DNA of 56,522 nucleotides, from the sequence record PQ783785; one strand, 5' to 3'. The stretch comes from Escherichia phage PDP46. Position 1 is the first letter of the stretch. Each line of letters starts with the position of its first letter. Positions 1,448 to 52,038 of this stretch are shown here, piece by piece. Below the pieces are notes generated by a model that was not told where the DNA came from, did not search any database, and saw only the letters and a list, made by a program, of their open reading frames with translations. The translations under genes were made by a program, and so were the position numbers.

Positions 1448-1495
1448 GTAATTTACACTTCCCTGTGTAATCCGTCAAGAATTATTTTAAACTTT
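1448..1495 (-). promoter_or_regulatory. Conserved early promoter copy 1 (UP element AAAATAATTC, -35 TTGACG, 17-nt spacer GATTACAC.., -10 TAAATT)
   Basis: Motif GTGTAATCCGTCAAGAATTATTTTAAAC on the + strand, reverse complement reads as a sigma70 promoter pointing left; -35 at ~1473-1478. Confidence 0.65.
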
Positions 1496-1814
1496 GTTTC
1501 AGTAACCGATACGTTTCAGGACATTTACCGGATCCGCGTTCACGTTCATAAGCTGCACTAATAACATCCCAGTTTTCAATCACACCTTTAAACGCCGGAC
1601 ACTTTTCAGCAATCAATGGAAAACTGTTTCTGATTTCTGGTACAGCTTCAACCAGGAGCCAACAACGGCGAAAATCAGCAACATCCCGTGGTGCACGAAA
1701 TCCCCAGTCGCCATCCATTTCATTACCTGTGTGAATGCATACCATCGTTTTAGAGCTTAGTCCGGTTTCACCAGAACATAACCACTGAATAATACGTTCC
1801 TGTTCTGTTCTCAT
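1482..1814 (-). CDS. Hypothetical early protein
   Basis: 110-aa ORF; start overlaps the stop of the rdgC-like gene (ATGA). Confidence 0.45.
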
Positions 1815-2725
1815 CGTTTAGCCTCCCCACCCAAAGCCGTGATAAGTTGTTTAATCAGCGCTGAAAGTTCACCTGTCATCAGTGTAAAATCAGCGTCAAA
1901 CCGCGCTAATACATCTTCGCGATCGATATCATCGTTCTGGTCGATGAGTTCGTCGCAGAATTTTAGGCGCGTTAAAATCGCGTCATAGGTCAGCGTAAAC
2001 GTTACCCGCTGCTGCCAGTCCATCGCCAGCTTTGTAACGAATTTCCCGGCTTCAATATGCGTGGCTATTTCGTCACTGGTTAAATCCTGTTTTTTAACGC
2101 GTGCAACACCGCCATCAGTCAGGTTCGCTTTCAGTTCCGCAGAATCACCCATTGTGAAACCTGCTGGCGCGTTTCCTGAACGTACCCACTCCGTTGTTGT
2201 CAGTTCAACAGGGTTTTCAGTTGTCAGTGGGACTACAGGCAGACTACCCAGGGATTTACGCAACAGTGCTAATGCGTCTTCAGCCCGTTTAGCACTGGAC
2301 GCATCAACCACGATTAACCCGTTAGTGATATCAATCCACAACTGTGTACGACTGTTTTTAACGAATGCTCGTGGTAACAGACTGTGCAATACTTCATCTT
2401 TCAGCGCGTCTTTCTCTGTTTTCTTCAGCTTACGCGCCTGTTCAGCTTCCAGTTTGGCGATTCGCGCGTTCAGATGCTGTTTAATGACCGGACCCGGAAT
2501 AATCTTTTCCTGTTTCTGGATGGTCAGCAGATATTGCCCATTAGCCTGGTGAACCAGCGTATGATGTTGTTCGGTTGCCGGAACCCAACCAGTACGCGCC
2601 ATATCCTGTGAACCACATGGATTGAACTGAAACGCACACAGGCTGTCTTCCAGTGTTGGTAACTGAGCCATTAATGCCATCGGGTTAGTCAGACGATAAA
2701 TGATTGCGTTTTTAAAGAAGTTCAT
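1811..2725 (-). CDS. rdgC: Recombination-associated protein RdgC homolog
   Basis: 304 aa; near full-length resemblance to enterobacterial RdgC as I recall it ([72 protein letters not shown]); AGGAAA RBS. Confidence 0.8.
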
Positions 2726-2740
2726 ATTTGTTTTCCTGTT

Positions 2741-3031
2741 TTAATAACAAAACCATGCTGTACATGTATTACAATGACAACCACCGCCGATACCATCGTG
2801 AATGTTCAAATGGATACAGTCGACGTCACCTGCTAATAAATCTCTGTTCTGGTCGTAAGCGTGAATAATCGCATTAAAACCATCAACAACATTTCCTTTA
2901 CCATCAGTAAGTGATACAGAATTAAACATGTCACGACCAATATTTTTCATCCAATTAATAGCATCTTTGACGTTGTTAAAATCACGTTCTGTATCAGGCA
3001 AATCGACAAGCGAATAAGTAACGATCGTCAT
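2741..3031 (-). CDS. Hypothetical protein with Cys/His-rich C-terminus
   Basis: 96-aa ORF in leftward early operon; C-terminal CIHLNIHDGIGGGCHCNTC. Confidence 0.45.
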   Translation of the reverse strand: MTIVTYSLVDLPDTERDFNNVKDAINWMKNIGRDMFNSVSLTDGKGNVVDGFNAIIHAYDQNRDLLAGDVDCIHLNIHDGIGGGCHCNTCTAWFCY

Positions 3032-3261
3032 TTCCGGTTCCTTCTTTTCTTCGCGTCGCGCCGGGCTTTTGCAATACCTGTTTTACGATGTGGTTGTTTA
3101 CGGTCAGTAATAAGTCGTTGTGGCGGAACACTCCATAAAGTATTGTTCAGACCATAATTATCTACCGAATAATACAAACCGTTAGCGGTGATAATTACAT
3201 TCGGATCGTACCCAGTAATTTTCCGAAAACAGTTGATAATTGTTGTTTTTGTACTCATCAT
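3028..3261 (-). CDS. Hypothetical protein with basic C-terminal tail
   Basis: 77-aa ORF; C-terminal KARRDAKKRRNRK suggests nucleic-acid binding. Confidence 0.45.
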   Translation of the reverse strand: MMSTKTTIINCFRKITGYDPNVIITANGLYYSVDNYGLNNTLWSVPPQRLITDRKQPHRKTGIAKARRDAKKRRNRK

Positions 3262-3524
3262 ACGTTCACCACTTTTAAATCGGGTGTCAGGCTACGATGG
3301 TCATGATGACCGTTCATGGTAAATGAGAAAGTGTAATCGCACTGCTCACCGTCGAACGTGAAGGGGATTTGAAACCCTGTATCGTCAGCGATGCGAACTT
3401 TAACCGGGTATTCAGCTTGCGGATCGACCGCTACAACAGTACCGAACGGTTTAGATTTGCGACGTGCGAGAATTTCTAACAGTCGTGGGCTGGTGATTTC
3501 TACGTGTTGACCAGTTTTAAACAT
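3258..3524 (-). CDS. Hypothetical early protein
   Basis: ORF 3258..3551 trimmed to Met10 (MFKTGQ) with GGAG upstream. Confidence 0.45.
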   Translation of the reverse strand: MFKTGQHVEITSPRLLEILARRKSKPFGTVVAVDPQAEYPVKVRIADDTGFQIPFTFDGEQCDYTFSFTMNGHHDHRSLTPDLKVVNV

Positions 3525-50057: not shown

Positions 50058-50297
50058 ATGGGTGGTCGTGGGTCATGTCGTCGAACTCGTTCGTTACGTT
50101 GTAGCAAATGTTATGAGCGAAACCTACGTAATTATTTATTAGGGTTTGGGACACGCAACTGGGAAAACGTTGATGTAACAGGTAAAAACGGAAACGCTTA
50201 CACCTGTCGTTGTAAATCCTGTGGTCACACTTATCAAACAACATCAGCGGCTGCACGTCGCGAATGGAAATGGAAGAAAAACCATGTTAATAACTAG
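50058..50297 (+). CDS. Zinc-ribbon protein (CSKC...CRCKSCGH)
   Basis: 79-aa ORF. Confidence 0.4.
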   Translation: MGGRGSCRRTRSLRCSKCYERNLRNYLLGFGTRNWENVDVTGKNGNAYTCRCKSCGHTYQTTSAAARREWKWKKNHVNN

Positions 50298-50529
50298 TAT
50301 TTTCATACTTGTATTTTGGATAATCATCGTTATACGTATAATTATTTGTGCTGTCACACAAAGAAAAATGATTGATTTTTATTATTCTGACGAAAGTGGT
50401 TGGGGCACACATCAACAGAGCATTTTTGATGCTTACCCACAATTAGATACTTTCAAAATGATTTTTAAATTCTGGGTATGGCCTATGTCAAAATTCTATC
50501 CTGAATACAGAAAAGGTAAAAAACCATGA
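50284..50529 (+). CDS. Small membrane protein
   Basis: ORF 50221..50529 trimmed to Met22; hydrophobic ITSIFILVFWIIIVIRIII; AT-rich. Confidence 0.3.
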   Translation: MLITSIFILVFWIIIVIRIIICAVTQRKMIDFYYSDESGWGTHQQSIFDAYPQLDTFKMIFKFWVWPMSKFYPEYRKGKKP

Positions 50530-50723
50530 AAAACATATTTGACCGTTTAATTACTGTTATCGTATTTCTTGTATCCGTAACACTCGCGTCTTGTATTGTC
50601 GGACTAATGACCCGTGGTAATCATGCGGAAACTCCGTGGTGGTTTCTGGCGGGTCTTGGATTATTAGCGGCTGCGGCATCAATTGGTGCTTGCATGTGGG
50701 GAGTGAAAAACGATCATGACTGA
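50526..50723 (+). CDS. Small membrane protein (2 TMDs)
   Basis: 65-aa ORF with two hydrophobic segments. Confidence 0.4.
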   Translation: MKNIFDRLITVIVFLVSVTLASCIVGLMTRGNHAETPWWFLAGLGLLAAAASIGACMWGVKNDHD

Positions 50724-50931
50724 ATTCGGTGCTGTAATCAAAAAAGAAGACCGTTATGCACATATTGATACCCGGATTACCTGGGTTGATATCAGTGAAG
50801 CTACTCTGTTCAGTTCAACTTACATGGCTGGTGTTGCACTTAAAGCACTTCGTGATCAAGGTTTCAATTGCAGAAAAGTAACAGTTGCATCTGTTAAAAT
50901 CACGCGGATCGTCGAGGAGACAGAAGGATGA
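50716..50931 (+). CDS. Hypothetical protein
   Basis: 71-aa ORF. Confidence 0.4.
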   Translation: MTEFGAVIKKEDRYAHIDTRITWVDISEATLFSSTYMAGVALKALRDQGFNCRKVTVASVKITRIVEETEG

Positions 50932-51608
50932 AAATTGTCTGGTCGTTATTCGATGGTTCCGGGATTATGGGCTTACCGTGGGCGATACATGGCTATCGGG
51001 TTTATTGTTTTAATGCTGATTCTGCTAATCACGGGGAATATTTTATTAAAGCCGATCACCCAAATCTTCATTACGTTAATCAGTGGATTGATCCACAATT
51101 TGCAATTAAGCAGGAAATACTGGGAACACCTTTACCGTCAATTATTTTTGGTTTTCCGGATTGCACCCTGTTTGCTCAAAGCGGTTCGCAACATGACCGG
51201 GATGACGCTGAACTACAGTATGCACTGGCAAACGCAAAACTGATTCGTGAACTCGGAGAACGTTATAACGTACCCTGGATGGTGGAAAACCCTGTCGGTG
51301 CTTTATCGCGTCCTGAAATGATGGGGACACCTGACGCTTATTTTCATCCGTGGGAATATGGCGGTTATATGACAACAGATGATAAACCTTTTCACCCTAA
51401 AATGCCGATGTTTGACGGATACACGAAGAAAACATGTCTGTGGTTCGGTAACGGTTTCAGAATGCCTGAAAAACGTCCAGGACCGATTAATATTGGTTTC
51501 TTCTGGGGCTGGAAATATCTGGGTGGTAAATCTGAAACAACTAAACAGTTACGTTCATTAACCCCGCGTGGCTTTGCTCGCGCTGTATTTGAGGCTAATA
51601 AACAATGA
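50928..51608 (+). CDS. Minimal C5-cytosine methyltransferase-like protein
   Basis: 226 aa; LFDGSG (motif I-like), FPDCTLFAQSG (PCQ-like), ENPVG (ENV-like) in canonical order; no target-recognition domain. Confidence 0.35.
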   Translation: MKIVWSLFDGSGIMGLPWAIHGYRVYCFNADSANHGEYFIKADHPNLHYVNQWIDPQFAIKQEILGTPLPSIIFGFPDCTLFAQSGSQHDRDDAELQYALANAKLIRELGERYNVPWMVENPVGALSRPEMMGTPDAYFHPWEYGGYMTTDDKPFHPKMPMFDGYTKKTCLWFGNGFRMPEKRPGPINIGFFWGWKYLGGKSETTKQLRSLTPRGFARAVFEANKQ

Positions 51609-52000
51609 TAATAGTCGTTACAGGCGGTCGTGACTTCAACGACAGAACAGCGGTATTTTCAGCATTAGGGTTACTTCACAAACAATTCCCGGTTACCGAA
51701 CTGATTGAAGGCGGTGCATCAGGTGTTGATAACCTGTGTAAGCAATGGGCGCAATTACACGGTATTCCTGTCCGCAGTTGTCCAGCAGCGTGGAACGATC
51801 TGACAGTGCCGGGTGCAGTAGTCAAACAAGGTAAGAACGGGCCTTATAACGCTGTTGCAGGTCATCAACGTAATCAGGCAATGTTAGAGGGTGAGCCACG
51901 CCCTATATACGGTGTTGTGTTCCCTGGTGGGCGTGGTACGGCTGATATGCACCGTCGTATGTTGAAAGCTGGTTTAACTGTGTGGGTTCCATATCCTTAA
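51605..52000 (+). CDS. SLOG / DUF2493-like Rossmann-fold protein
   Basis: 131 aa; IIVVTGGRDF and GGASGVD motifs. Confidence 0.45.
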   Translation: MIIVVTGGRDFNDRTAVFSALGLLHKQFPVTELIEGGASGVDNLCKQWAQLHGIPVRSCPAAWNDLTVPGAVVKQGKNGPYNAVAGHQRNQAMLEGEPRPIYGVVFPGGRGTADMHRRMLKAGLTVWVPYP

Positions 52001-52038
52001 AATAATTCTTGACAGATTACCAACCCTCCCCGATAATT
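51992..52038 (+). promoter_or_regulatory. Conserved early promoter copy 13, rightward (-35 TTGACA ~52009, -10 GATAAT)
   Basis: AAAATAATTCTTGACAGATTAC on the + strand. Confidence 0.7.

Follow-up and report, generated by a model that had tools for sequence, protein, structure and literature searches.

Thirteen copies of a rigid sigma70-type promoter block in the genome of Escherichia phage PDP46

A short motif is repeated across the genome of Escherichia phage PDP46 (PQ783785), a 56-kb 9NA/Sashavirus-type virulent siphophage of enterobacteria. This raises the question of which machinery reads the motif and why its sequence is kept so uniform at scattered sites. The analysis covered the whole stretch of 56,522 nucleotides, referred to here as the window. 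Its large ORFs were assigned to virion and replication genes via annotated relatives; nearly all its early ORFs lack a functional assignment. No published start-site, timing or activity data were found in the literature searched for any phage of the 9NA/Sasha-type group.

Number and anatomy of the repeated copies

The full 27-mer occurs twice in exact form in the window, and 11 times when up to three mismatches are allowed, compared with no occurrence in 100 shuffles. A 16-nt core, TAAAATAATTCTTGAC (= GTCAAGAATTATTTTA), is present in 13 copies with 0-1 mismatch; at up to three mismatches it gives 15 matches against 1.17 expected by chance. The core lies on the plus strand, with the promoter directed to the left, at ten positions (1474, 3581, 5299, 8735, 10958, 12100, 17218, 25544, 44413 and 44476) and on the minus strand, directed to the right, at three (17522, 49771 and 51998). 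An earlier sequence-only reading had reported 13 copies, ten leftward and three rightward; the core scan recovered this number against about one loose chance match, and the same split, with the rightward -35 elements at 17533, 49782 and 52009. A generic sigma70 consensus scan gave no excess of window matches over shuffles and overlooked three of the 13 copies, because the -10 of those three matches the consensus at only 3/6. The copies, and two candidate promoters embedded on the opposite strand, are as follows.

Copy 1, 1443-1491, minus strand: block 1466-1491 (TTTAAAATAATTCTTGACGGATTACA); -35 1478-1473; spacer 17 nt; -10 TAAATT 1455-1450; predicted start ~1443; first gene 1226-1414
Copy 2, 3550-3598, minus strand: block 3573-3598, within the 3' end of upstream gene 3560-3766; -35 TTGACG 3585-3580; spacer 17 nt; -10 TAGACT 3562-3557; first gene 3258-3524
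Copy 3, 5268-5316, minus strand: block 5291-5316; -35 5303-5298; spacer 17 nt; -10 TAATCT 5280-5275; first gene 4590-5243; divergent from TerL (5380)
Copy 4, 8704-8752, minus strand: block 8727-8752; -35 8739-8734; spacer 17 nt; -10 TATGCT 8716-8711; first gene 8474-8680; divergent from the portal gene (8822)
Copy 5, 10927-10975, minus strand: block 10950-10975; -35 10962-10957; spacer 17 nt; -10 TAACCT 10939-10934; first gene 10559-10903; inside a leftward gene string, leader near-identical to that of copy 3
Copy 6, 12068-12117, minus strand: block 12092-12117; -35 TTGACA 12104-12099; spacer 18 nt; -10 TAACAT 12080-12075; first gene dUTPase 11537-12040; orthologous site in AVIO78A annotated as a generic sigma70 promoter
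Copy 7, 17187-17235, minus strand: block 17210-17235; -35 17222-17217; spacer 17 nt; -10 TATCTT 17199-17194; first gene 16764-17141 (or 17165)
Copy 8, 17520-17568, plus strand: block 17520-17545; -35 17533-17538; spacer 17 nt; -10 TACCCT 17556-17561; first gene 17592-17960
Copy 9, 25513-25561, minus strand: block 25536-25561; -35 25548-25543; spacer 17 nt; -10 TATCTT 25525-25520; single gene 25224-25487
Copy 10, 44382-44430, minus strand: block 44405-44430; -35 TTGACA 44417-44412; spacer 17 nt; -10 TAAAGT 44394-44389; first gene 43613-44356
Copy 11, 44444-44493, minus strand: block 44468-44493, one mismatch (TAAAATAGTTC); -35 44480-44475; spacer 18 nt; -10 TAACAT 44456-44451; in tandem, 63 nt upstream of copy 10
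Copy 12, 49769-49818, plus strand: block 49769-49794; -35 49782-49787; spacer 18 nt; -10 TATAGT 49806-49811; first gene 49843-50055
Copy 13, 51996-52044, plus strand: block 51996-52021, end ATTACC; -35 TTGACA 52009-52014; spacer 17 nt; -10 GATAAT 52032-52037; first gene 52072-52302, then ParB-HTH gene 52308-53075
Candidate opposite-strand promoter within copy 11, 44467-44495, plus strand: TTGCAA, 17 nt, TAAACT; helicase start codon (44527) 31 nt past the -10
Candidate opposite-strand promoter within copy 6, 12091-12119, plus strand: TTGCAA, 17 nt, TAAACT; start codon of gene 12148 28 nt past the -10

At the site equivalent to the candidate in copy 11, 9NA and Carvaje carry TTGCAA-17-TATGAT. 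For the candidate in copy 6, the -10 TAAACT is kept in PJ16 and Sergei (-35 TTGCAA) and in 9NA (-35 TTGTAA), and is absent from Carvaje.

A sigma70 promoter anatomy is seen in all 13 copies. The conserved 26-bp block spans -48 to -23 and comprises a UP-like tract, the -35 and the initial portion of the spacer. The proximal UP-like tract is A-rich from -46 to -38, with invariant A at -45 to -42 and -40; in the proximal UP subsite of rrnB P1, the key bases are adenines at -41 to -43 (PMC4390567). The -35 is TTGAC(G/A) in 13/13 copies, in the context tcTTGAC(G/A), and the spacer measures 17 nt in ten copies and 18 nt in three (12100, 44476, 49771). All -10 elements have A at position 2 and T at position 6, twelve reading TAnnnT and one GATAAT. 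The UP-like element and the -35 previously described hold for all 13 copies, while the uniform 17-nt spacer and TAnnnT do not. Nor is the ~25-bp motif a whole promoter, since the conserved block ends at -23 and leaves a variable, weak -10 outside.

All 13 copies face an adjacent start codon. In 12/13 it is an ATG preceded by a Shine-Dalgarno site and located 57-64 nt past the -35, the exception being the tandem copy at 44476, 63 nt upstream of 44413. Leaders consist of 20-29 nt, A/C-rich, followed by the Shine-Dalgarno site; start codons had been placed within ~40-60 bp and are measured at ~30-40 nt past the -10. In a family pool of 157 promoters, for which relatives and metagenomic contigs were the sources, conservation is seen at T-12, A-11 and T-7, the commonest start bases are C-1 and A+1, and the leader is A-rich. 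The -10 elements of this pool match TATAAT at 3.9/6 on average, and TG at -15/-14 was found in just 4/157.

Genes served and a second promoter class

The copies head small-gene cassettes and the polymerase operon. Copy 10 is followed by gene 43613-44356 and then by an operon reaching DNA polymerase. The proposal that leftward copies head small-gene cassettes needs amending for two of them, which head the large replication/polymerase operon instead. The gene behind copy 9 has the major tail gene on one side and the tail chaperone genes on the other. The gene behind copy 8 is a small inserted gene which overlaps the first head-operon gene (17957 onward), and no plus-strand terminator-like site was found between it and the head operon. 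Copy 8 very probably reads into the head genes and fits a purely early class poorly.

Virion and lysis genes are preceded by conserved extended -10 motifs (TGnTATAAT-like) without a -35. Of 25 extended -10 matches, nine are followed at a distance of 20-110 nt by a co-directional start (1.9 expected), and all three perfect TGnTATAAT sites stand ahead of late genes. This late class had been overlooked in the sequence-only reading. The genes behind the 13 copies are presumed to be early and middle genes; "strong, synchronous, early" transcription, as formerly stated, describes predicted properties only.

Conservation of the block and candidate explanations

Exact copies of the block occur in 9NA, Sergei, PJ16 and Carvaje, and a variant is found in Enterobacter phage Mulvp2. 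Orthologous promoters of relatives are 95% identical in the 26-bp block and 70-78% in the flanks, while paralogous promoters share 90% in the block and 26-34%, the random level, in the flanks. Such conservation between diverged flanks indicates that a short element is under selection, and not that it was recently duplicated by copy-and-paste, so that "copied" was a misleading term, and it supports strong purifying selection across the Salmonella, E. coli and Klebsiella relatives. In contigs of unrelated phages (GC 28-50%), AAAATAAT(T/C)nTTGACA is repeated and is followed ~17 nt downstream by TATAAT or a near variant, supporting the view that the upstream half (UP-like tract and -35) is a promoter family recurring in unrelated phages.

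The 13 copies are probably promoters of this putative early/middle gene set, read by host RNA polymerase with sigma70, in which the block is held by selection and also acts as an exchange junction. Each copy would combine the A-rich proximal UP-type tract (-46 to -38), the classical extended -35 (tcTTGAC, G/A) and the 17-18 nt spacer with a -10 that appears deliberately non-consensus (TAnnnT, no TG). With a UP tract, a consensus -35 and a weak -10, initiation would rely strongly on the alpha C-terminal domain and on sigma region 4. The targets of the copies would be the leftward small-gene cassettes, the DNA-polymerase operon and right-end accessory genes, and the extended -10 promoters without -35 would serve virion and lysis genes. 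Selection would keep the 26-bp block nearly invariant, and the block may be a junction for cassette exchange, gain or loss between relatives because it is the sole long identical stretch scattered through the variable regions.

Recognition by RNA polymerase alone does not account for the whole block, since an ATTRCA box at -28 to -23 lies outside the known contacts of sigma70 and alpha. The box, which the sequence-only reading did not mention, is invariant to the same degree as the -35: T-27 and T-26 are present in 157/157 promoters. It is specific to this phage group: Mulvp2-type phages carry GTGTGTA instead, and no conservation was seen at this position in the unrelated phages sharing the upstream half. 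A possible, if rather doubtful, addition compatible with host-read promoters is that the block also holds a site for a phage-encoded DNA-binding regulator, namely ATTRCA, perhaps with the pseudo-dyad TAATTC-N5-GGATTA centred at -33, through which all copies would be turned off, or on, jointly. The window encodes HTH proteins (the ParB-HTH protein, 52308-53075, and NinH, 12955-13149), and with -35-independent late promoters, shutting off the first class globally would provide a simple temporal switch. Some copies extend the box to a perfect 8-bp dyad, GATTACAC-N6-GTGTAATC, as in the spacer of copy 3, but only 3/13 do so; the dyad is imperfect, the conserved CA at -24/-23 being unmatched in the opposite half, and no cognate regulator was found among the scanned ORFs. 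The ParB-HTH protein and the pseudo-dyad could also suit a repeated protein-binding site in intergenic DNA that is no promoter at all (parS-like partition, packaging or replication). This is very hard to reconcile with 13/13 copies facing a start codon, at 57-64 nt in 12/13, and with a -10 having its A and T in place at 17-18 nt, a polarity and phasing not expected of partition or packaging sites. Equally improbable is a phage-encoded RNA polymerase or sigma factor as reader in place of the host holoenzyme. Phages with their own polymerase typically have very uniform 20-25 bp promoters, and many small window ORFs have no known function; however, no RNA polymerase or sigma family match was obtained in the ~50 window ORFs scanned, no unassigned ORF large enough for a polymerase was found in the window, what stays invariant is the sigma70 -35 consensus, together with TAnnnT at 17-18 nt, and unrelated phages use the same upstream half with TATAAT -10s.

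Homology with relatives begins or stops at block edges (3573, 5291, 10977, 17210, 44428). A breakpoint is present in 9/9 motif-bearing gene junctions and in 36/68 others (p = 0.009), a comparison confounded by the longer non-coding stretches of motif-bearing junctions. The single copy in 9NA has the upstream flank of window copy 2 and a leader resembling that of copy 1, and the 2.1-kb cassette between these two window copies has no DNA match in 9NA. Between window copy 3 and PJ16 27475, identity is 26/26 in the block, 21/22 in the spacer, 27/40 in the leader and 16/52 in the upstream flank. The mosaic breakpoints at the block suggest recruitment of cassettes behind one shared promoter. They also bear on the idea that the block is chiefly a recombination linker, a PeSL-like mobile regulatory cassette whose identity between copies permits excision, insertion and swapping, with a secondary promoter role. 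In its favour are the breakpoints, the cassette indel flanked by two copies, the same promoter and leader before unrelated genes at unrelated sites (copy 3 and PJ16 27475) and the PeSL precedent (PMC2839356). It is nevertheless unlikely: for homologous exchange a length of 26 bp is small, compared with the ~100 bp conserved in PeSLs, no consistent stem-loop or terminator partner was found in the window copies, and neither the fixed orientation and distance to start codons nor the invariance of exactly the sigma70 and alpha contact positions is explained.

Comparison with known systems

The closest known kind is that of repeated phage early/middle sigma70 promoters. The early promoters of T4 and T5, both virulent coliphages, are read by the host sigma70 holoenzyme. 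The window copies resemble these and the UP-element promoters (rrnB P1; PMC4390567, PMC2613000) in their presumed host sigma70 reader, the A/T-rich UP-type tract adjoining the -35, and a high copy number per genome, with conservation at more positions than in host promoters. They differ in the weak family -10 (3.9/6 mean), without extended -10 in the window copies, in a literally invariant -35 and proximal UP tract, and in the group-specific ATTRCA box after the -35.

Thermus phage P23-45 with gp39, and T4 with AsiA (PMC3950348), also have a -35-dependent class and a late extended -10 class without -35. By analogy, promoter classes in the window phage might be switched by remodelling of sigma region 4, although no gp39- or AsiA-like protein was identified in the window; in P23-45, the -10/-35 promoters that gp39 inhibits are described as those of host genes (PMC3950348), and in the window phage the corresponding class would belong to the phage itself. 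Lambdoid morons (PMC2839356) likewise are single genes with their own promoter inside late operons (compare 25224-25487 and 17592-17960), but morons do not have a single promoter sequence in common, nor is their movement thought to be mediated by their promoters. A short sequence at a dozen promoters across the replicon is shared with two further systems, and the window encodes a ParB-family HTH protein. RK2 KorB, of the ParB family, and phage P1 C1 are global repressors with many operators at promoters; in contrast, the window block is only a putative binding site and not a clean palindrome, and the window phage is virulent.

Nearest are the promoter-early stem-loops (PeSLs) of the T4-type phages RB49 and phi1 (PMC2839356, PMC4122927). 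The window copies lack their consistent stem-loop or terminator component, are conserved over 26 bp instead of ~100 bp, and belong to a 56-kb siphophage rather than to T4-type myophages; mini-circle-type recombination products would be conjectural here. What the two share is a repeated sigma70-like early promoter that has an A/T-rich tract ahead of its -35 and is concentrated in variable regions rich in small orphan genes. In both, related phages differ from one another at the repeats, and the promoter travels with the cassette. As a phage feature the repeated block is of an ordinary kind, but its rigidity is unusual.

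Anatomy of a probable repeated promoter

The 16-nt core of the repeated promoter, GTCAAGAATTATTTTA, was found in 13 copies at 0–1 mismatch, and 15 matches were obtained at up to 3 mismatches versus 1.17 expected. The 27-mer proposed from the sequence alone occurs twice exactly and 11 times at up to 3 mismatches, versus 0 in 100 shuffles. Ten of the copies lie on the + strand, giving promoters that read leftward, and three on the - strand (17522, 49771, 51998). The sequence-only reading was correct as to the number, coordinates and orientation of the copies. All 13 copies point in the same direction as the next gene, with 57–64 nt between the -35 and the ATG in 12 of them; the 13th (44476) is a tandem promoter located 63 nt upstream of 44413.

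Read toward the gene, a copy consists of (t)TTAAAATAATTC-TTGAC(G/A)-nATT(A/G)CA. The -35 element TTGAC(G/A), with TC just before it, is present in 13/13 copies; tcTTGACa is the classical consensus and TC before TTGAC the classical extended -35. The uniform architecture claimed earlier, a 17-nt spacer followed by a TAnnnT -10, applies to most copies: the spacer is 17 nt long in ten and 18 nt in three, and the -10 pattern is present in 12, the remaining hexamer being GATAAT. All 13 hexamers share an A in the second and a T in the sixth position, they match TATAAT at 3–5 of 6 positions, and none has a TG extension. The leader is 20–29 nt long, A/C-rich and contains GGAG or GAGG. Information content is concentrated in an invariant element of 26 bp from -48 to -23 (the block), and in the -10 region T-12, A-11 and T-7 alone are moderately conserved. 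The same features were seen when 157 different promoters of the family were assembled from relatives and metagenomic contigs: their -10s agree with TATAAT at 3.9 of 6 positions on average, 4 have TG at -15/-14, C-1 and A+1 are the most frequent bases, and the leader is A-rich.

The stretch TAAAATAAT is invariant at -46 to -38, where positions -45 to -42 and -40 are all A. In the proximal UP subsite of rrnB P1 the adenines at -41 to -43 are the most important ones (PMC4390567), and the A-tract of the block at -45 to -39 fits such a subsite. At the sequence level the family has what is expected of a sigma70 promoter that carries a proximal UP subsite. A generic sigma70 scan recovered 10 of the 13 copies, and its total matches were not above those in shuffles; such a scan alone would therefore have missed singling out these sites. 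Inspection by eye gave, in our judgement, no fit of the block to an IHF, Fis, CRP, MotA-box or lambda CII-type repeat. The block promoters may be considered as candidate strong, compact and portable promoters for Enterobacteriaceae.

Conservation of the block and its ATTRCA box

The core is exact in the phages 9NA, Sergei and PJ16 and in Klebsiella phage Carvaje, with 9–10 copies in the genome parts examined. Enterobacter phage Mulvp2 displays TAAAATAATTGTTGAC as a variant, with GTGTGTA-like bases behind it. Orthologous promoters are 95% identical in the block and 70–78% identical in the upstream flank, the leader and the spacer/-10 region. For the 13 window paralogues the values are 90% in the block and 26–34%, the random level, in the flanks. 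This argues for purifying selection on the 26-bp element and not for recent duplication, so that the idea of one promoter copied 13 times was not borne out. Leaders are held in common by copies 3 and 5, 4 and 12, and 6 and 9. No description of the promoter family was found in the literature, motif-string search included; the principal genomics study of these phages (Zeng et al. 2019) was outside the search and may contain it. The GenBank records of the relatives annotate no promoter family, and that of AVIO78A tags one orthologue as a generic sigma70 promoter. The invariant block offers a simple marker to annotate early and middle units in genomes of the group.

A 24-nt pattern including the ATTRCA box (-28 to -23) was detected in about 25 IMG/VR viral contigs, many of them with multiple copies (at least 11 in one 58-kb contig), and once, in a CRISPR spacer, in 185,579 species-representative bacterial and archaeal genomes. 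In a scan of viral contigs with a 15-base pattern, chance single matches dominated among the matches listed. The upstream half of the block, AAAATAATTnTTGAC, recurs as repeated promoters in unrelated phage contigs of 28–50% GC, where it is followed by A and, about 17 nt downstream, by TATAAT or a near variant. We read this recurrence as an indication that -48 to -31 represents an optimum that holds generally for bacterial RNA polymerase. The ATTRCA box is restricted to this phage group. To our knowledge, neither sigma70 nor alpha makes a contact at -28 to -23, and the box is the sole part of the block that the promoter reading leaves unexplained. Its use as a second -35 was considered and rejected, since no -10 lies at the proper distance. 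The ATTRCA box represents a small, sharply defined problem in promoter biology.

The match in cellular genomes is a 32-nt spacer (TTAAAATAATTCTTGACGTATTGCACTGATGT, 1145–1176) of Yersinia pekkanenii NZ_CQAZ01000023.1, in an array at 94–1686 with 27 copies of the 28-nt repeat GTTCACTGCCGTACAGGCAGCTTAGAAA, which we take to be of type I-F. The spacer partly matches every promoter copy in all group phages examined, at best over 28 nt with 2 mismatches; the other spacers of the array gave no match to the group phages. In the window, copy 13 alone has CC, the type I-F PAM, just upstream of the spacer match.

Genes behind the copies and a predicted second promoter class

Megablast identified the window as a virulent siphophage of Enterobacteriaceae of the 9NA/Sashavirus type. 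Identity is about 95% over large parts to the Salmonella phages Solent, Sergei and Sasha and to the E. coli phages PJ16, AVIO78A and KarinMuster (Bas82), and lower to 9NA (~80%) and to a group of Klebsiella phages (~78%). The gene order agrees with the annotation of the relatives: rightward virion genes (TerS, TerL, portal, head morphogenesis, head, tail, lysis) are broken up by leftward strings of small genes and are followed by a divergent replication region and a right-end accessory set. Neither an RNA polymerase nor a sigma gene was found in the annotation of the relatives or among about 50 window ORFs compared with PHROGs and Pfam, and the window gave no Rfam family and no tRNA. An ORF of the HNH/endonuclease family (14272–15195, -; 307 aa), probably inserted as a homing endonuclease gene, lies in a stretch with a GC content of 36% versus about 44% elsewhere; for most of the stretch (~14243–15252) the comparison with five relatives gave no DNA match. 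Transcription units were drawn from a rough gene map and terminator-like hairpins.

Copies of the block, numbered from left to right, with direction, -10 hexamers and the genes that they head
Copies 1–7 (1474–17218), leftward; TAAATT, TAGACT, TAATCT, TATGCT, TAACCT, TAACAT, TATCTT; strings of small genes, nearly all of unknown function
Copy 8 (17522), rightward; TACCCT; small gene 17592–17960, overlapping the first head-operon gene
Copy 9 (25544), leftward; TATCTT; single gene, with the major tail gene on one side and the tail chaperone genes on the other
Copies 10 and 11 (44413 and 44476), leftward, in tandem; TAAAGT, TAACAT; operon reaching DNA polymerase
Copies 12 and 13 (49771 and 51998), rightward; TATAGT, GATAAT; right-end genes (methylase, ParB-HTH protein, phosphohydrolase)

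The known genes behind copies 1–7 are RdgC-like, dUTPase and Pfam Phage_VG64 (recombination directionality factor in PHROGs). The proposal that leftward copies head small-gene cassettes holds for these seven copies; it fails for copies 10 and 11, with their DNA polymerase operon. Gene 17592–17960 is present in PJ16 and AVIO78A and absent from 9NA, Sergei and Carvaje; because it overlaps the first head-operon gene, read-through from copy 8 into the head genes is likely. Judged by these genes, an early label may reasonably be given to most copies, though not cleanly.

Further elements were observed around several copies. On the other strand of copies 11 and 6, the block reads TTGCAA-17-TAAACT, at 44467–44495 (+) and 12091–12119 (+), and the helicase gene (44527) and gene 12148 begin 28–31 nt past these -10s; the helicase locus of 9NA and Carvaje has TTGCAA-17-TATGAT. 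This suggests overlapping divergent or bidirectional promoters in both regions. Between the divergent copies 7 and 8 lies an A/T-rich region of about 288 bp (17236–17519), a possible origin or regulatory region, which contains short direct repeats and a 26-nt inverted repeat (17243–17268 / 17301–17326, 92% complementary); the two copies themselves, on either side, make up a perfect inverted repeat of 24 nt. Two degenerate block-like sites are conserved in all the relatives. One lies past the capsid gene region at 21461–21489 (+), where TTGACA-17-TATTGT overlaps TATAACTATTCTTGAC, and might be a promoter directed at the neck and tail genes. The other, TTTTAAATAATTCTATAC at 39501–39516 (+), separates the DNA polymerase gene from the following one; its -35 is poor, and it is directed antisense into the polymerase gene.

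The virion and lysis genes carry none of the block copies. They are preceded by an extended -10 (TGnTATAAT-like) without -35, which is conserved in 9NA, Sergei, PJ16 and Carvaje.

Extended -10 elements and the genes that they precede
5340–5348, +, TGGTAAACT, TerL
8774–8782, +, TGATATAAC, portal
13284–13292, +, TGATATAAT, head morphogenesis
17914–17922, +, TGTTAGAAT, first head-operon gene (17957)
21075–21083, +, TGGTATCAT, gene 21128
22007–22015, +, TGCTAATAT, gene 22044
35899–35907, +, TGATATAAT, lysis genes
35984–35992, -, TGTTATAAT, tailspike

Nine of the 25 strict extended -10 matches in the window sit 20–110 nt upstream of a co-directional start, versus 1.9 expected, and all three perfect TGnTATAAT sites lie upstream of late genes. 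Genome-wide TGATATAAT is not enriched (12 versus 18 expected); its placement upstream of late genes alone is non-random. Another motif common to the vicinity of TerL and the tail chaperone gene, TGTACAGAAC, was discarded, as it is not enriched (9 versus 5.5 expected). Directly after the perfect extended -10 at 13284–13292, and just before ATG 13323, a terminator-like hairpin with a T-run is located at 13294–13317, and the start predicted from this -10 would fall inside it. The window carries two predicted promoter classes, one -35/UP-dependent with weak -10s and the other a -35-independent extended -10. Together they provide a first sequence-based transcription map, with two sharply different promoter classes, for a poorly studied group (9NA, Sasha, Sergei, KarinMuster/Bas82 and the Klebsiella relatives).

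The split into two classes recalls phages which remodel sigma region 4, by gp39 in P23-45 or AsiA in T4 (PMC3950348). As no gp39- or AsiA-like factor was identified here, a switch between the classes is put forward only as a hypothesis. In one version of it the block would be promoter and operator at once: either ATTRCA and a pseudo-dyad spanning the -35 would be bound by a phage protein, or the class would be disabled via a factor acting on sigma region 4 or alpha, and the 13 promoters would be turned off together, with the extended -10s of the virion and lysis genes staying active. If true, this would represent a complete early-to-late switch in a virulent siphophage without its own polymerase or sigma factor. 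We regard this reading as unlikely. The pseudo-dyad TAATTC-N5-GGATTA matches at 5/7 positions per arm. The dyad GATTACAC-N6-GTGTAATC, across the spacer and the start of the -10, is a perfect 8 bp in copy 3 only (5275–5303; fold z-score -5.2), with shorter versions in copies 1 and 5 (1450–1478, 10934–10962). The search for a regulator, sigma or anti-sigma among the ~50 ORFs yielded only the ParB-HTH protein (52308–53075), NinH and a weak 'transcriptional regulator' match (53885–54148), the ParB-like protein and NinH being the only generic HTH proteins in the ORFs scanned. The ParB-like gene is present in 9NA. The first 50 kb of Mulvp2 yielded no such gene, nor did the first 50 kb of PJ16, Sergei and Carvaje, beyond which it would fall in these three. 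The copy 3 dyad was also observed in the orthologues and in one PJ16 cassette.

Mosaic junctions and likeness to PeSLs

Homology segments from BLAST against 9NA, PJ16, Sergei, Carvaje and AVIO78A often start or stop exactly at the block (3573, 5291, 10977, 17210, 44428); of 190 segment ends, 12 fall no more than 40 bp from a copy, versus 3.6 for random positions. In the first 49 kb a breakpoint is present at 9/9 motif-bearing gene junctions versus 36/68 others (Fisher p = 0.009), an excess that is suggestive only, because motif-bearing junctions are longer non-coding stretches. One copy in 9NA has the upstream flank of window copy 2 fused to a leader resembling that of copy 1, and the 2.1-kb cassette between window copies 1 and 2 is without DNA match in 9NA, an indel bounded by two copies. 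In PJ16 the promoter and leader of window copy 3 precede other genes, which are inserted between those for tail chaperone and tape measure.

When the upstream, spacer and leader segments were folded for all 13 copies, a z-score of -3 or lower was reached in only 4 of them, at differing places. Leader hairpins seen by eye were dismissed, as they lie partly upstream of the predicted start and concern few copies only.

The family appears to behave as repeated sigma70 early promoters do in other virulent phages, with the PeSLs of T4-type phages, for which reshuffling of cassettes at repeated promoters was described (PMC2839356), as the closest likeness. It adds, from outside the T4-type phages, a second case in which a repeated promoter is located at mosaic cassette junctions. 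As in PeSLs, a sigma70-like promoter with an A/T-rich upstream tract is repeated in variable regions beside orphan genes, the genes downstream of the copies being nearly all small and of unknown function. Unlike in PeSLs, an adjacent stable terminator stem-loop does not consistently accompany the promoter here.
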